Both the position numbers and the translations under genes were made by a program. Shown here in pieces: positions 3,232 to 62,321 of a stretch of DNA of 64,000 bases. This stretch comes from Candidatus Saccharimonadales bacterium (GTDB taxonomy: Bacteria > Patescibacteriota > Saccharimonadia > Saccharimonadales > Saccharimonadaceae). Position 1 is the first letter of the stretch; each line of letters begins with the position of its first letter. The stretch covers positions 7,192 to 71,191 of the forward strand of contig JBKGVB010000033.1 in the NCBI GenBank assembly GCA_046462475.1. Direction: 5' to 3'. Under the pieces are notes generated by a model that saw only the letters and a program-made list of their open reading frames with translations, was not told the DNA's origin and did no database searches.

Positions 3232-6200
3232 ATGGACTTTACGAAGCGTTTTAAGACGCTCAACGATCGGCAAAAAGAGGCGGTAACTGCGATTGATGGA
3301 CCAGTCATGGTTATCGCTGGGCCTGGTACAGGCAAGACCGAACTCCTCAGTATGCGTGCCGCCAATATTCTTCGAGAAACTGACACACTACCAAATAACC
3401 TATTATGTCTGACGTTTACTGAAAGCGGCGCGGCTGCCATGCGGGAGCGACTCGTAAGCATCATCGGCCAAGATGCCTATAAAGTAGCTATTCACACCTT
3501 CCACAGCTTTGGCAGCGATGTCATCGCTCGGTATGGTGAATATTTTTACCAAGGCGCCGATGTGCGTCCGGCCGACGAGATTAGTACGTATGAAATTCTC
3601 CGCGGCATTTTTGAAGAACTGCCACACTCCAGCCCGCTCGCAGGTCAATTTGGTGGTGACTTTACCTATCTCAGCGACACCGCAAAGACAATTTCCGAAT
3701 TAAAAAAGAGCGGACTAACCAGCGACGAGCTACTCGTTGTACTCGATGACAACGAGCGAGTACTCGATACCGCCGAGCCCGTCCTGACTGAGTTATTTGC
3801 AAACCGCATTAGCAAATCGATGCTCCCTCGGCTGTCGGCCATCGCCACCACCATTGCCGAGCTGGAACCTCGCTCACTTCCTTCTAGTATCACACCGCTT
3901 GCAAGCACACTCGCACTCAGCATCGCCCACGCTGTCGATGCGGCAATTGATCTTGAGTCAACCAAGCCTATCACCGCATGGCGCAATAAGTGGCTGGAAA
4001 AGAATGCCAAGGATGAATTTGTCTTCAAGGACCGCAAGCGCCAGGCTCGCCTCCGTGCTGTGAGTAATGTGTATTTCCAGTACCTGAGCCGTATGCAGGA
4101 GCGCCATCTTTATGACTTTGACGACATGGTCTTACGAGTACTGCACGCGACCGAAGTCTTTGACGATCTTCGTTATAGCCTCCAAGAGCAGTACCTCTAC
4201 ATCATGGTTGACGAGTTTCAAGACACAAACCTTGCACAGATGCGCCTGCTGAGCGCCCTCACCAGCAACCCTACAAATGAAGGTGCTCCGAACCTGATGG
4301 TTGTCGGCGATGACGACCAGGCGATTTACAGTTTTCAAGGTGCCGAGATCAGTAATATTCTCGATTTTTCAAGCCGTTACGAGTCAGTCAAGCGCATTAC
4401 GCTCGTCGACAACTATCGCTCAACCCCAGAAGTTCTCACGGCGGCCAGGGAAGTGATTACCCAAGGAAGCGAACGGCTCGAAAGCTATCTTACAGATCTC
4501 GACAAAACGCTCACAGCACATCTCCCGTCCGGCACTGCTGTACGCCTCATAGAAACTGCAACGCCAGACAGTGAACGAGCGTGGCTTGCAAGGCATATCA
4601 AAGAAATGATCAAAAGCGGAACATCTGCACAAGATATCGCCGTCCTCACGAGGCGTCATAACGAACTCGAGGCGCTACTGCCATACTTTACCGCTGAAGA
4701 GGTAACGGTTCAATACGAACGTCGCGATAATATTCTCGAGAACGAACTAATTATCCAGCTTTCTCTCCTGAGTCGCATCATCCATAGCCTTGCAGTTGGT
4801 CAGCATGAGGACGCAAACACTCTACTCCCAGAACTGCTCGCCCATCCAGCTTGGAACTTTTCTTCCGAAACACTATGGAAACTAAGCCTGAAAGCACACC
4901 ATGACCGCGCCTACTGGATGGAAGCGATGAGCGAAATGACCGAATTTCTGCCACTACGCACATGGCTACTCGACATGGCGCAGCAAAGTCTCGTATCGCC
5001 ACTCGAAGTCATGCTTGATCAGCTTGTCGGAAGCTCTGAGACAGACGGTACAGATGCATTTATCTCGCCATATCATGGCTACTTCTTCACTCGCGAAAAG
5101 CGCGACACAGCCTCATCATCGTATCTCGAATTCCTCGAAGCACTGAGAACCTTGCGTCATGAGCTTCGTACGTATAAAAATGGCAATGATATTAAGTTGG
5201 CTGATTTTCTTGACTTCCTCACCGTACACCAGCAGCTTGGCTCTACGATTTCAAGCGTCCGCGTATCAGGATCAGACAACGAGGTAGCCATCCATCTTAT
5301 GACGGCCCACAAATCAAAGGGATTGGAATTCGACCACATCTTTATCGTTGGTGCAGTCGATAGCAAGTGGGGCCGACAAGTCCGTAGTCGTTCACGGCTT
5401 ATTAGCTACCCTGAAAATCTACCACTTATGCCAGCAGGGGACACTTACGATGAGCGCCTGCGTCTTTTCTTCGTTGCGATGACTCGTGCGAAAAAGAGCC
5501 TCACCATTACTCACGCTAGCGCCGATGAATCTGGCTCCGCCTTGAGTCTGCCTGAGTTTTTGGTCGGCAACTCATGGACGGTAGAGACAGTCGAGGAAAG
5601 CTCGGTCGAGCAACAAGTACGCGATGCTAAAATCGCCTGGTACCAGCCTCTTATTACTCCGCTCGAACCGTCCATGAAGCAATTACTCACCTCAACCCTG
5701 GAGCGATACAAACTCAGCGCAACACATCTTTGCAACTTCCTCGACATTACTCATGGCGGACCTGAGCACTTTCTGCTTAGCAACTTACTGCGTTTCCCGG
5801 AAGCAATGAGTCCAGACGCAGTCTATGGATCGGCTATCCACGCCTGCCTGCAACAAGCACACGCGCACCTGATTACGACAGAGCACCAGCGACCAATCGA
5901 AGACAGTCTGCAAGATTTTGAGCATTTTTTGGCGCGCGGCTCACTCGATAAAGATACATTTTCACGTTACCTCGAGCGTGGCAGCAATGCTCTGACGACC
6001 TTCCTGGGTGCAAAAGGGGACAGCTTCACTACCACTCAAAGACCTGAGCTTGGATTCGCTGGACAACAATCGTATATAGATGACACTCATCTTACCGGCA
6101 CGCTTGATCTTGTCGATATCGACCACGAAGCCAAGACCATCATCGTTACCGACTATAAGACAGGGCGTCCGTCTCATTCGTGGAAGGGGAGAAGCGACGG

Positions 6201-6753: not shown

Positions 6754-6863
6754 CGAGATGTAGCTCAGTCTGGAAGAGCACGCGATAGTTTCTCTCCCCG
6801 GTTAACCGAGAGAGAAGCTTCCTATATCGCGAGGCCGTGGGTTCAAATCCCATCATCTCGACC
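6754..6863 (+). tRNA. tRNA-like gene with a 34-nt hairpin insertion in the anticodon loop; anticodon not assignable
   Basis: - Acceptor stem: CGAGATG/CATCTCG.
- D arm: GCTC-AGTCTGGAA-GAGC.
- Anticodon stem: CGCGA (6781-6785) / TCGCG (6827-6831), enclosing 41 nt instead of 7.
- Variable loop: AGGCC.
- T arm: GTGGG-TTCAAAT-CCCAT.
- Discriminator A followed by CC. Confidence 0.6.
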
Positions 6864-58730: not shown

Positions 58731-59456
58731 TTAGGCTACACGAGTGACGAAGAACATGGTGATGAGACCCAGAATAGTCAGTGCGATCGTCACATACGAC
58801 GAATGCTTCGAATGTGCCTCTGGCAGAATCTCGCTTGCTGCTATATAGAGCAAGAATCCGGCAAAGAATCCGAGGTAGAGTACGAGCAAATTATCAGGAA
58901 GATGGAAGAGAAGCGTCGAAGCCGCACCGAGCACCGGCGCTAATGCATCAAGTACCAGCATGATCCTCGAATGCTTTTTGCTATTCTTGTTCATCAGCAT
59001 GAGATTGACGGTATTGAGGCCGTCTGAGAAATCATGAGCTACCACGGCAATCGCTACCGCAACACCAATCGTTTCGCCAGCCTGAAAACCAAGACCGATC
59101 GCCACGCCATCGAGAAAGCTATGACCAATCAATGCAAGCGCCGAAACGATACCAACACTTGGATGATGATGCACCTCATACTCAGATTCTTGCGAATAGT
59201 GGATCAATATTGATTTTTCGACGATATGAAACAACATAAAGCCAGCAACCAGCGCCAGCATAGTCCAAATTGTTTCGACATGCGTTTTCTCGACAAGCTC
59301 GATAATCTCTGGCAGCAAATCAAACGCTACCACGCCTAGTAATACGCCGGCGGTGTAACCCAGGAAGCGATGCAATTTATCGCGAAACCGCAGCGCTGTT
59401 AGTCCACCAAAAAGAGTAGAGATAAATGTCGCGATAGATACAAGAACGGGAACCAT
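58731..59456 (-). CDS. ZIP-family metal (zinc) transporter
   Basis: HSFLDGVAIGLGFQ and VVAHDFSDGL motifs, with about 8 TM helices. Confidence 0.8.
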   Translation of the reverse strand: MVPVLVSIATFISTLFGGLTALRFRDKLHRFLGYTAGVLLGVVAFDLLPEIIELVEKTHVETIWTMLALVAGFMLFHIVEKSILIHYSQESEYEVHHHPSVGIVSALALIGHSFLDGVAIGLGFQAGETIGVAVAIAVVAHDFSDGLNTVNLMLMNKNSKKHSRIMLVLDALAPVLGAASTLLFHLPDNLLVLYLGFFAGFLLYIAASEILPEAHSKHSSYVTIALTILGLITMFFVTRVA

Positions 59457-59514
59457 TACATCTATTGTAGCAAAGACTTGACGCTAGCGGACGAAAGCGT
59501 ATGCTAAAAATACA

Positions 59515-59856
59515 ATGAATAGACATCCATTTGAAGCAGCTCAGCGCGGCAGAACAGAATTTTGGGAAAGTCTCAGAGATAAGAACCTTGCAGAGCATGA
59601 CAAAACAACGGCTCAGATAACACTCTTTCGACCAATCGATGCACTTCGTAAACAACGCGAACTACGCCGCATCAGGAGATTCCTTACCCGTGCTGCCGTT
59701 ATCATCGACGAAAGTCGCAACCATGATAAAGAAATTGCGGATTTTCATGACACTGAATCCGAGCGCCAGTCTACACGGCACATCACGATTATTCCCGAGC
59801 CGGGTTTCATAGCAGCTCGCCAGCCTGAGACTTCTGCATTCGATACGACCTTCTAG
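59515..59856 (+). CDS. Hypothetical basic protein (113 aa)
   Basis: ORF only. No motif recognised. Confidence 0.45.
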   Translation: MNRHPFEAAQRGRTEFWESLRDKNLAEHDKTTAQITLFRPIDALRKQRELRRIRRFLTRAAVIIDESRNHDKEIADFHDTESERQSTRHITIIPEPGFIAARQPETSAFDTTF

Positions 59857-59972
59857 GATTGTAAGATGTTGTTATTGATGGTATCGTAGTATAAATTTCG
59901 TCGAGCGGCGAAAGCCGTGAGATACTTCCAGCCGACCGCTCCGAAATCGGAGCTTGAGAGACAGGAAAGACC

Positions 59973-60431
59973 ATGAGCGTTGATGAAGAGCTGCTTGCGC
60001 GCGAGATCGTCGCGCAAAAACAACGAGAGGCTGACTACGTCGCCGCAGTGAAGGGCGGAAGGCGAGCCATCAGGCTCGTCTCCGCCGAACAGCGTGCCGC
60101 CACTGAGCGCATGAACAAGCTCAACTGGCCCGACAGTGAGATCGAGCGCGTCGAAGTCTGGAGATTTCTCCGGCGTTCGACCTCAAAACACATCCGGCTC
60201 ATCCAGCTGCTCGGCGATCCCTTTACGGGCAACCTGCGTGATGCCTGGCAGTCTGATGCAGGAACGCCGCGATGGCTCGGAGAAGATGGCAGACTCTACG
60301 GAGTAAACCTAATGCTCTTCGATAGGTGGGCAAAGCCCGGCATGGCGCCGCTCGCCCCGCTCAACGGATTGCGCTTCGAGCACCACCATGGTCAGGAGCT
60401 TCTGGAAGCTCTGCGCAAGCTGGGCACCTGA
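59973..60431 (+). CDS. Hypothetical protein (152 aa), GC-rich
   Basis: AGGAAAG lies 4 nt before the ATG, and a strong terminator follows the ORF. Confidence 0.55.
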   Translation: MSVDEELLAREIVAQKQREADYVAAVKGGRRAIRLVSAEQRAATERMNKLNWPDSEIERVEVWRFLRRSTSKHIRLIQLLGDPFTGNLRDAWQSDAGTPRWLGEDGRLYGVNLMLFDRWAKPGMAPLAPLNGLRFEHHHGQELLEALRKLGT

Positions 60432-60446
60432 CCTTTCAAGCTCCGA

Positions 60447-60482
60447 AGCCCCGACAGCAATGTCGGGGCTCGGTTCTTTTTT
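60447..60482 (+). terminator. Rho-independent terminator
   Basis: AGCCCCGACA-gcaa-TGTCGGGGCT followed by CGGTTCTTTTTT. Confidence 0.75.
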
Positions 60483-60486
60483 AGAC

Positions 60487-60848
60487 AAATAAAAAAGCGC
60501 TAGGTAAGGGTGGGCATCACCTAGCGCCATTTTACCCTTCAACCCACACCACGGGGTCCCCGAAAATCGTAAGATTTTAAGGGGTCTCGCTGAGAACGAA
60601 GCGTCATGCGGTAACTCCACGAGACCGTGCGCCTGAGCGAATCACTACTGGATAGTCGTTCTTTGAAATGGTATCCTCGACTCCGAAGAGCCGGGGGTTA
60701 AAGGGGTTAGTATGCAAGCAATGCTGTCTAGCGGCTCTGCAGTGGAGGGTAGAATACTGCGAGAGCACATTGCTCACAATCTAACATAAGTTAGAATAGG
60801 GGGTATAAGGTGCGTTTGGTTAAGTCTCGCAGAGTTCTCAACCAATCG
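60487..60848 (-). ncRNA. Orphan structured ncRNA candidate (~355 nt) bounded by its own promoter and terminator
   Basis: - Terminator (minus strand): GCGCTAGGT-13 nt-ACCTAGCGC followed by TTTTTTATTT (60487-60527).
- Internal stems: GGTCTCG/CGAGACC, AGCAATG/CATTGCT, AAAATC-ttac-GATTTT, CTC-UUCG-GAG.
- Coding: no credible ORF on either strand. Confidence 0.5.
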
Positions 60849-60854
60849 TTCACC

Positions 60855-60883
60855 ATATTAGCACGGATTTGACATTAAGTCAA
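60855..60883 (-). promoter_or_regulatory. Sigma-70-type promoter TTGACT-17 nt-TAATAT (minus strand)
   Basis: -35 at 60878-60883 and -10 at 60855-60860. The -35 box sits inside the palindrome TTGACattaaGTCAA. Confidence 0.55.
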
Positions 60884-60903
60884 TACTTTTCGACAGGTTT
60901 TTT

Positions 60904-61764
60904 ATGAAAATCAATACAATTTCCCCAGATAGTGCTGAGTTTCTCCAGATACTGGAAGCTATTGCAAAACCACCGGAAATATTACGCTATATAGGAATTC
61001 TTCCCCAACAGAGGCGACCCACTGTTGCCATCGTTGGTACACGCAAGCCAACAGCTTATGGAAAAGAGGTGACGACGCGCCTCGCCCAAGAACTTGCGCT
61101 CAAGGGTGTCGCGATCGTCTCTGGGCTTGCGCTCGGCGTTGACGCGCTTGCTCACCGAGCAACGCTAGAGGCCGGCGGCACGACCATTGCCGTGCTCGGT
61201 AATGGCTTGCCGCGCATTTATCCGGCCAGCCACCAGGCACTTGCGCAGCAAATCGTAGAGAGCGGAGGCGCCATCCTAAGTGAATACGAGAAGAACGAGG
61301 CAGCTCGCCCTCACTATTTTCTCGAGAGAAATCGCCTTGTGGCTGGCTTGGCCGACGCAGTTATCATTACTGAAGCTGCCGCACGTAGCGGCACATTAAA
61401 TACCGCTATGCATGCTATGGAGCAGGGCAAAGAAATTTTTGTCGTACCGGGCAATATTACAAGTCCCATGAGTATTGGCTGCAATCAGCTCATCAAGCAG
61501 GGCGCAACACCGCTCATACATAGTGATGAGGTACTCCAAGTAATCGCCCCAGAACTCCTCAATGCGCCCAGTCATACACATATTGCCGTGCAAGATCCCC
61601 TGCAAGCAGCGATTCTCAAGCATATCACCGACGGAATGCGCGATGGTGACACCTTGCAGCAGATAATCGGCTGCTCAGCAACTGACCTATCAACAGCCCT
61701 CACTATGCTCGAAATCGCCGGCGCTATCCGGTCGCTCGGTGCAAATCAGTGGACATTACGCTAA
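60904..61764 (+). CDS. dprA: DNA-processing protein DprA (Smf)
   Basis: VAIVGTRKPTAYG and VSGLALGVDALAHRATLEAGGTTIAVLGNGL. Confidence 0.9.
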   Translation: MKINTISPDSAEFLQILEAIAKPPEILRYIGILPQQRRPTVAIVGTRKPTAYGKEVTTRLAQELALKGVAIVSGLALGVDALAHRATLEAGGTTIAVLGNGLPRIYPASHQALAQQIVESGGAILSEYEKNEAARPHYFLERNRLVAGLADAVIITEAAARSGTLNTAMHAMEQGKEIFVVPGNITSPMSIGCNQLIKQGATPLIHSDEVLQVIAPELLNAPSHTHIAVQDPLQAAILKHITDGMRDGDTLQQIIGCSATDLSTALTMLEIAGAIRSLGANQWTLR

Positions 61765-61829
61765 TATTATGTTTTTATAAATATGCCTGATGCGGACCGT
61801 CCGTGTGGCAAAGAGTTTCAGGAGAACCC

Positions 61830-62321
61830 ATGAAAACCGATTCCGACGGCAAGATCTGTCCGTTCTGTCTCGAGAACGGTATGGTGGAGGTGATTGCTGA
61901 GACCAGGGATGCGTACCTGATCCAAGCGATCAAGGATGGAAACATCGCACCTGGTCGCTACTTCATCATCCCAAAGGAGCACATCGAGTCGCTCACCAGT
62001 CGTCCCGACGACTGGACCCGGCAGGAAAACGAGCTCATTCGATGCGCCTTCACCCATGCACAGGTCGATCCTCAACTGTCCGAACTTATGGGTGTGCGCA
62101 GCCCCTGGGATGCGCTCAACACAAGCTGGAATCAGGGCGAGTATGCCGGCCAGCGGGTGTGGCACATCCACCAGTGGATCGTCTTCCGCTACGACAACCT
62201 CGGAATCGGCCTTGATGGGCTGATCGAGCAGAAAGGTCATGACAGGAGGCGCATCGCCGAGCTCGAAGCCGAGCTCGTGGAGGTCCGGCGAGGTGCTGGA
62301 CTTCAGCTCAACGGTCTCTAG
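61830..62321 (+). CDS. HIT-like (histidine triad) protein with a coiled-coil C-terminal extension, GC-rich
   Basis: CPFC, YFIIPKEHIESL and VWHIHQWIV (degenerate H.H.H motif). GGAGA lies 4 nt before the ATG at 61830. Confidence 0.55.
   Translation: MKTDSDGKICPFCLENGMVEVIAETRDAYLIQAIKDGNIAPGRYFIIPKEHIESLTSRPDDWTRQENELIRCAFTHAQVDPQLSELMGVRSPWDALNTSWNQGEYAGQRVWHIHQWIVFRYDNLGIGLDGLIEQKGHDRRRIAELEAELVEVRRGAGLQLNGL

Follow-up and report, generated by a model that had tools for sequence, protein, structure and literature searches.

A 64,000-nucleotide (nt) stretch of a contig from a Candidatus Saccharimonadales bacterium (GenBank assembly GCA_046462475.1, contig JBKGVB010000033.1, hereafter the window) contains a candidate RNA gene on its minus strand at 60883-60487, next to the divergently oriented dprA gene. 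Comparison of homologous loci shows this predicted gene to be an independent, single-copy structured-RNA gene that is found class-wide and has conserved transcription signals. With moderate confidence it is interpreted as the gene for a previously uncatalogued family of structured noncoding RNA (ncRNA) that is present throughout the Saccharibacteria (class Saccharimonadia) and acts in trans by means of a scaffold that displays unpaired elements. These bacteria are tiny epibionts, and the product is probably one of their housekeeping-type RNAs that has so far gone undescribed. A preliminary description of the window had proposed an ncRNA, novel or highly divergent and with a housekeeping or regulatory role, that is neither a leader nor antisense to any gene, and this proposal is supported by negative Rfam and ARAGORN searches, by covariation and by the gene context.

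The homologous loci were retrieved by means of the DprA protein and not of the RNA, using one genome per GTDB species (63 Saccharibacteria and 17 genomes of other phyla). In every one of the 63 Saccharibacteria loci, nhmmer placed the RNA element directly upstream of dprA and on the opposite strand; none of the 17 dprA loci outside the Saccharibacteria carried it. A scan of metagenomes with a pattern taken from the 3' hairpin (H7), containing the H7 loop, returned at least 120 contigs. Among the matches listed, the whole element was present in 114 out of 120 contigs (at least 114) and dprA was divergently adjacent in 88 of approximately 100 contigs with enough flanking sequence. A covariance model of the 3' domain identified exactly one copy per source in 100 sources, the window included.

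The length of the element among the homologues is approximately 245-450 nt. In the window copy, the conserved parts are approximately the 175 nt at the 5' end and the 75 nt at the 3' end, and the middle 125 nt are absent or different in most genomes. The conservation takes the form of invariant blocks and of helices that changed on both sides, with no codon periodicity. The most constant feature is the H7 loop (GAUGCCCACCCUU), which varies only at the third base in 58 genome-derived sequences; other constant features are the CCUCC-type pyrimidine loop of hairpin H3, the GCACCU start of linker J1/2 and the CGCU end of hairpin H5. Saccharibacteria genomes are approximately 0.7-1 Mb in size and contain very little non-coding DNA. 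The RNA is likely to be central because its promoter, terminator, fold and invariant stretches of 13-24 nt are kept class-wide in such small genomes.

The transcription signals of the candidate gene in the window are the following:
60855-60883, minus strand, strong-looking sigma-70 promoter with the -35 element TTGACT (60883-60878), a 17-nt spacer and the TG-extended -10 element TAATAT (60860-60855)
60869-60883, no strand assigned, palindrome TTGACTTAATGTCAA, 20 nt away from the dprA ATG and overlapping both the -35 element and the spacer
60488-60848, minus strand, predicted transcript of ~360 nt with ends inferred from the promoter and the terminator
60528-60487, minus strand, intrinsic terminator, given as DNA: GGCGCTAGGT (60528-60519), a 13-nt loop, ACCTAGCGC (60505-60497) and TTTTTTATTT (60496-60487)
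60487-60496, minus strand, U-tract of the intrinsic terminator (UUUUUUAUUU), read from the sequence and conserved in homologues

A consensus scan of the promoter matched 9 out of 12 consensus positions plus the TG extension. This was the only sigma-70-like site within 59500-62000, and one site found against 2.5 expected is not above chance. The promoter is significant because it is kept in the homologues and not because of this single match: a TTGAY-N17/18-TAnnnT promoter is present at the expected place in 158 of the 177 homologues listed, and 151 of those carry the TG extension. The extended promoter motif AAAGTRTTGAC was not enriched within the window as a general signature of strong promoters. 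The transcript was taken to start ~7 nt past the -10 element and to end within the U-tract. The terminator was missed by the terminator scanner because its loop is longer than 8 nt. The A-tract on the 5' side of H7 and the U-tract on its 3' side are complementary, and the positions flanking them covary. This complementarity, together with a pth gene that often converges on the RNA within 100 nt, indicates that the terminator is probably bidirectional and would serve both converging transcripts (RNA and pth). The promoter, the -35 element within a palindrome upstream of dprA (60883-60869), the GC-rich terminator stem with its U-tract and a series of helices had all been pointed out in the preliminary description, and each of them is present in the window copy; the promoter proved to be conserved and the terminator stem to covary, and the UUCG, GGUCUCG/CGAGACC and CCCC...GGGG helices turned out to belong to a lineage-specific expansion.

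The RNA of the window has a minimum free energy of -130.6 kcal/mol compared with -96.7 +/- 5.7 kcal/mol for shuffled sequences (z = -5.9) and none of 100 shuffled sequences folds as well. The predicted order of the fold is H1, linker J1/2, H2, H3, a linker, H4 enclosing H5 and H6, an A-tract and H7. The elements were placed as follows (type A is the subtype of the window):
60814-60847, minus strand, H1, 5' hairpin GAUUGGUU...AACCAAAC, supported by covariation
60796-60813, minus strand, J1/2, single-stranded 18-nt linker GCACCUUAUACCCCCUAU, near-invariant in type A, predicted unpaired probability 0.98
60780-60795, minus strand, H2, small hairpin UCUAAC-UUAU-GUUAGA, 99% of cells paired with little variation
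60714-60777, minus strand, H3, long bipartite hairpin supported by covariation, apical loop UAUUCUACCCUCCA at 60756-60743
60706-60713, minus strand, J3/4, conserved linker AUACUAAC, from the homologue alignment
60696-60705, minus strand, 5' strand of H4, CCCUUUAACC, long-range pairing with 60544-60535 that closes the 3' domain
60545-60695, minus strand, expansion inside H4 that is specific to the A-long subclade; most homologues lack it or have another segment in its place
60535-60544, minus strand, 3' strand of H4, GGUUGAAGGG, from the fold and covariation
60497-60534, minus strand, A-tract (60534-60529) and H7 terminator hairpin GGCGCUAGGU/ACCUAGCGC (60528-60497) with the 13-nt loop GAUGCCCACCCUU at 60518-60506

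Covariation across about 100 non-redundant homologues, an analysis that the preliminary description had proposed, is strong and supports seven predicted helices, H1 to H7. Overall, 54 of the 65 modelled pairs changed on both sides. Within the 5' domain (84 sequences) 90% of cells are paired, 28 out of 32 pairs changed on both sides and the covariation score is 0.438 compared with 0.207 for shuffles, none of 500 reaching it. Within the 3' domain (100 sequences, model-guided alignment) 94.6% of cells are paired and double-sided changes affect 26 of the 33 pairs; the score of 0.412 exceeds the 0.157 of the shuffles (none of 500 as high) and the values obtained with slid partners (no more than 0.075). 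All seven outer pairs of H1 (94% of cells paired) and all 12 pairs of the H3 base helix (95%) changed on both sides, as did nine of the 10 pairs of the H7 stem (98-100%), the tenth of which never varies. The long-range helix H4 exists in the covarying versions UUUAAC/GUUGAA, UUUAAC/GUUAAA, UAUAAC/GUUAUA, UUUGUC/GACGAA, UUUGAC/GUCGAA and UUCAAC/GUUGAA. An unguided MAFFT/RNAalifold run displayed compensatory change in 30 out of 57 pairs, and single-sequence folds of divergent type A and type B members reproduce the same architecture.

In most homologues H1 is capped by UGCGAG, a GNRA-type GCGA loop. For H2 there is an alternative pairing (H2') between GUUAG and the downstream ACUAAC (60711-60706; ACUAAY in homologues), and the counts favour neither. 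H2 is nevertheless the favoured prediction because insertions of up to ~170 nt in other genomes fall exactly in the H2 loop and because type B has an unrelated hairpin at this position. The J1/2 linker and the H3 loop are predicted to be unpaired with a probability of 0.7-0.98 in seven of eight folds; in the window the H3 apical loop, which carries the conserved, anti-Shine-Dalgarno-like CCUCC, reaches 0.91, and the H7 loop averages 0.61 over its 13 nt. A pseudoknot between GGGUGGG and CCCACCC of the H7 loop was considered and is not favoured: the G-run is already part of H6 and H4, the topology is unfavourable and the variants GGGUGCG, GGUGAG and GAUGUG occur without compensation. Since H6 and H4 take up the G-rich run that precedes H4, no evident intramolecular partner is left for the C-rich elements.

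The homologues can be divided into subtypes. In type A the J1/2 linker is GCACCUUAUACCCCCUAUUCUAAC and the H3 loop is CUACCCUCCAC. Type B (e.g., L060 and L125) carries the linker GCACCUAAAUAAAUCAUAAUUU in place of the type A J1/2, an extra nested hairpin in H3 followed by GUAUUACCUCCAC, and a different hairpin at the position of H2. Four further loci (L053, L056, L119, and L188) have an H3 loop that is pyrimidine-rich yet different. The short forms contain a ~45-nt H5 hairpin (GGCGGACCUC..GAGGUGGGUCACGCU) plus a small H6 hairpin; the type A subclade of the window has a larger domain in place of the short H5, with the conserved blocks GACUAUNCAGUAGUG ... CAGGCGCNCA ... GACGCUUC. The expansion in the window contains a CUC-UUCG-GAG hairpin, the segments GACUAUCCAGUAGUGA...CAGGCGCAC...GACGCUUCG, the GGUCUCG/CGAGACC helix and a CCCC-AAAAUC-uuac-GAUUUU-GGGG hairpin (60583-60558), the last of which is common only to the window and L123. 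In some homologues the H2 loop carries insertions of 50-170 nt (L022 at about 3735-3890, L025, L030, L059, and L062), and the insertion in L022 is flanked by the inverted repeat UAGUGAACUUACCGC...GCGGUAAGUUCACA; such insertions may be expansion hairpins or small mobile insertions.

According to the favoured interpretation the RNA would work in trans as a stable housekeeping-type RNA, with the covarying scaffold displaying invariant, unpaired C/U-rich elements: the H7 loop, the CCUCC loop of H3 and the linker that starts with GCACCU. The partner could be a protein that binds RNA or else an RNA rich in purines (e.g., a Shine-Dalgarno-like sequence), and the data do not separate the two versions. 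If the partner is an RNA, CCUCC and CACCU, which form the core of the 16S anti-Shine-Dalgarno sequence, might pair with purine-rich RNA. The C-rich loops of small RNAs (sRNAs) of Gram-positive bacteria such as RsaE/RoxS bind G-rich ribosome-binding sites in this manner. If the partner is a protein, it may read C-rich single strands or the H7 loop; KhpA and KhpB were found to be enriched with the raiA RNA (PMC12968392). A scan of a viral sequence collection gave four matches, three of which are chance similarities. The fourth (L083, IMG/VR contig IMGVR_UViG_3300021255_000095, 218-252, minus strand) is a true copy of the H7 hairpin alone, with an identical 13-nt loop on a different, compensated 10-bp stem (GGCGAGAGGU/ACCUCUUGCC). 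It is located right after an open reading frame (ORF) of 163 amino acids with an HTH_36 domain (replication or regulator-like) and is accompanied neither by a U-tract nor by any other part of the RNA. A virus may have copied the hairpin as a module, and this single case suggests that H7 is a self-contained recognition module.

Several points weigh against this interpretation. The transcript, its ends and its abundance are deduced from sequence. The alignments were fitted with covariance models and are biased toward the model structure, and the pairing counts leave H2 and H2' undecided. The invariance of the H7 loop in the metagenome set arises by construction, so that the independent evidence for it is the set of 58 DprA-derived sequences. 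Invariant loops cannot covary, and tertiary or intermolecular pairing of these loops is therefore beyond the reach of covariation. The complements of the three C-rich motifs were neither enriched nor found at a recurrent position in the 64-kb window plus 1.5 Mb of related loci, a small sample from one genomic region. Finally, the many leaderless-looking genes weaken the case for a global targeting of Shine-Dalgarno sequences.

A related reading, which is tentatively held to be possible, is that the gene encodes the RNA of an essential class-wide ribonucleoprotein or a catalytic RNA specific to the Saccharibacteria. The anti-Shine-Dalgarno-like motifs and the H7 loop would then take part in a core function of these minimal, largely leaderless genomes, for instance the control of ribosomes or translation, or RNA processing, and the RNA would extend the short list of large bacterial RNAs that look ancient.

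It is unlikely that the RNA is a ribozyme or a ligand-binding RNA whose dense conservation and multi-helix junction form an active site or a binding pocket, as proposed for further large orphan RNAs of bacteria, raiA among them. Many of the invariant nucleotides are indeed located in junctions and loops, the three-way junction of H4, H5 and H6 is conserved across all subtypes and most large conserved bacterial ncRNAs of known function are ribozymes (PMC10861870). However, H5 and H6, which form the junction, are the most plastic helices and are replaced or expanded between subclades, and types A, B and C have different 5' linkers and H3 loops. The greatest invariance is found in the apical loop of a hairpin, a piece that also exists alone on the viral contig, and the data suggest no substrate, ligand or self-cleavage site.

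A second alternative is local control of the neighbouring dprA gene. The genes around the RNA in the window are the following:
60904-61764, plus strand, DprA gene, divergent neighbour of the RNA
60447-60470, plus strand, terminator belonging to the 152-amino-acid ORF
59515-59856 and 59973-60431, plus strand, two ORFs of 113 and 152 amino acids with no Pfam match
58731-59456, minus strand, ZIP transporter gene, the next minus-strand gene, beyond the two plus-strand ORFs

The RNA gene would in this case act on dprA by promoter competition or antisense pairing, as the promoter or 5' untranslated region of dprA must overlap the RNA gene. The divergent adjacency in the genome loci (63/63) and in the metagenome loci listed (88 of ~100) agrees with such a role. 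Furthermore, only 20 nt separate the -35 element of the RNA from the dprA ATG, the gap shows no sigma-70 promoter for dprA and no recognisable -10 element was found between the palindrome and the start codon. The palindrome spans the shared region and recurs as TTGAC-N5-GTCAA in 98 of the 158 homologous promoters (L001-L204 set); a dimeric regulator might use it as an operator, or it could be left over from divergent promoters. Local control is nonetheless improbable. The RNA persists without change in loci that lack an adjacent dprA (L100, L158, L191 and several of type B, e.g., L125), its conservation is strongest at the 3' end, farthest from dprA, and transcriptional interference does not need a covarying fold of 250 nt with invariant loops far from the overlap. 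In L125 the RNA is co-directional after pth (pth > RNA > hsp20). The unchanged RNA in L100, where dprA is missing, and in L125 argues that the function is independent of adjacency to dprA. In L100 (7728-9632) the RNA is intact, no dprA is detectable between the RNA and topA and the gap holds atypical-looking ORFs alone, which suggests that this lineage lost or replaced dprA.

Past the RNA terminator, the conserved genes are the opposite-strand pth, which comes first, and then der (177 loci listed). The distance between the RNA and pth ranges from a 2-nt overlap (-2 nt) to several kilobases and is often within 100 nt. The ancestral order is der > pth > / < RNA / dprA > (topA), with one copy per locus. 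In the window, pth and der are found beyond the ZIP gene and the two ORFs. The interval between pth and the RNA holds different cargo in each genome (L001-L204), which in the window is the ZIP gene and the two unassigned ORFs, and it looks like an insertion hot spot.

That the RNA is an extremely divergent RNase P RNA, transfer-messenger RNA (tmRNA), signal recognition particle (SRP) RNA or 6S RNA missed by the standard models in the Candidate Phyla Radiation (CPR) is very improbable. Annotation of a complete Saccharibacteria genome with PGAP gives only two ncRNAs (PMC8830319), and CPR RNase P RNAs are divergent, fall below the Rfam thresholds and are often missed by annotation (PMC8172020); we infer that the PGAP shortfall is due to RNase P RNA scoring below threshold. 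The size range fits as well, and this is the part of the resemblance to tmRNA and RNase P RNA noted in the preliminary description that stands; nothing beyond size agrees, the ends form local hairpins and the defining motifs are absent. In one study RF00010 finds the RNase P RNA in all 35 complete bacterial genomes (34 CPR genomes), including two circularised genomes of the Saccharimonadia (PMC8172020).

An Rfam-wide search, as suggested in the preliminary description, was run and gave no family match. At the gathering score the whole window contained three tRNAs and nothing else (Rfam 15). Searches at E<=10 were made with sequences of 300-800 nt from three divergent members (the window element, a short type A member, L023, 250 nt, and the type B member L125) and returned terminator-like noise only; the RNase P, tmRNA, SRP, 6S, raiA and rRNA models did not match these members at either threshold. 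ARAGORN predicted no tmRNA, permuted forms included. On direct reading, the CR-I (GAGGAAAGUCC) and CR-V (ACAGAA..GGCUUA) strands of the RNase P helix P4 are absent, consistent with the lack of a match to RF00010 or RF00011. The string nearest to the P4 consensus is GAGGUGGGUC, which is present only in the short-form H5, a peripheral hairpin that is replaced in the subclade of the window. The end-to-end stems of RNase P RNA, tmRNA, 6S RNA and raiA RNA are absent because both ends of the RNA form local hairpins (H1 and H7, both supported by covariation), and no closing P1 of the RNase P type joins the 5' and 3' ends. A tRNA-like domain (acceptor stem, T-arm and 3' CCA) and a conserved tag frame were not found, and the ORF-bearing middle is absent in most homologues. 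The SRP helix 8 motif (GNRA tetraloop and conserved internal loops) was likewise not found, without a match to RF00169 or RF01854; the RNA is variable in the middle and conserved at the ends, unlike SRP RNA with its conserved central element. A single extended hairpin or rod of the 6S type is not present in this multi-domain fold, which lacks end-to-end pairing and gave no match to RF00013, and the raiA covariance model gave no match at E<=10, the architecture differing from its published description. Resemblances to T-box, glmS and 5S loop C elements on direct reading were discarded as short chance similarities in non-universal parts.

A cis-regulatory leader or riboswitch gating a downstream gene, or a small protein-coding gene, is scarcely credible: the closing helix H4 followed by a terminator resembles a transcriptional OFF riboswitch, a same-strand ZIP gene follows the RNA in a few loci (L101, L117, and L150) and two minus-strand ORFs exist in the window copy, one of 57 codons (60604-60777, GTG start) and one of 41 codons (60645-60770, ATG start), but the next gene is mostly the opposite-strand pth, no anti-terminator alternative is evident, most of the ORF length falls in a segment that the majority of homologues lack or have in variable form (the ORFs are therefore not conserved genes) and the invariant blocks lack codon periodicity next to helices changed on both sides. 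A leader or riboswitch was ruled out by mapping of the downstream genes in the 177 loci listed, as no conserved same-strand gene follows the RNA, and a coding gene was ruled out by the location of the ORFs in a dispensable segment. The statements of the preliminary description that the RNA is not a 5' leader and that the next minus-strand gene (the ZIP transporter) lies beyond two plus-strand genes thus hold, and its statement that the interval has no ORF longer than ~25 codons was wrong.

Overall, the RNA has the general properties of an independent ncRNA gene (its own conserved promoter and terminator, compensatory helices and no coding signature), and topic-based and literal-sequence searches of the literature gave no description of it. 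It belongs with raiA and OLE in kind, as a large, highly conserved RNA, but forms a new family and is a member of no known one. The closest known system is the raiA motif RNA (ModT) of the Bacillota and Actinomycetota, which is encoded between raiA and comFC and whose function is unknown (PMC10861870, PMC12968392). Both are single-copy, stand-alone, structured RNAs of a few hundred nucleotides with a high fraction of invariant positions and their own promoter, neither is cis-regulatory, both lie beside a competence gene (comFC there, dprA here) and both have peripheral stems that vary around a constant core. The raiA RNA, in contrast, has a P1 stem joining its ends and two covarying pseudoknots (PK1 and PK2) and occurs in a different host phylum, whereas the RNA described here has local end hairpins, the internal long-range helix H4 and a functional terminator hairpin.

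Similarities to other RNAs are more limited. The sRNAs of the RsaE/RoxS type are independently transcribed and have C-rich motifs of the kind that is predicted to be unpaired in the loops and linkers of the RNA described here, the terminator loop included, but they are simple hairpins of ~100 nt, in contrast to a covarying multi-domain fold of 245-450 nt; there is no sequence or model similarity, and complementary sites were not enriched in the 64 kb plus 1.5 Mb. RNase P RNA is a universal single-copy housekeeping RNA. Its bacterial type A and CPR forms share with this RNA a similar size and conserved blocks separated by variable expansion helices, but not the P4 pseudoknot consensus or the P1 closing stem. 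RNAs of the 6S/Ms1 type show little sequence conservation from phylum to phylum and frequently escape detection. They are likewise stand-alone RNA genes of the abundant type with a strong promoter and terminator, but they form single rods with paired ends around a central bubble, unlike the several independent domains found here.

The RNA would join raiA, OLE, ROOL and GOLLD among the large conserved orphan RNAs of bacteria. Unlike for most such RNAs, the host lineage is tractable, Saccharibacteria having recently become accessible to genetics via natural transformation (PMC10633639), so that the RNA can be deleted and its loops mutated. A dedicated covariance model is warranted, with which CPR genomes would no longer be annotated as empty at this locus, and it can be used as a compact lineage marker.

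Two further observations were made within the window. Among the ORFs of 150 codons or more, many lack a Shine-Dalgarno sequence and have a TAnAAT or TGnTAnAAT box located only 6-12 nt upstream of the ATG, a pattern that suggests widespread leaderless or near-leaderless mRNAs in this genome. In addition, a tRNA-like gene is located at 6754-6861 (plus strand), which scores 53 bits with the Rfam tRNA model and for which ARAGORN makes no call. Its anticodon stem (CGCGAU/AUCGCG) encloses ~40 nt with a hairpin (UUUCUCUC..GAGAGAGAA) and not a 7-nt loop, and it could be an intron-containing or otherwise unusual tRNA.

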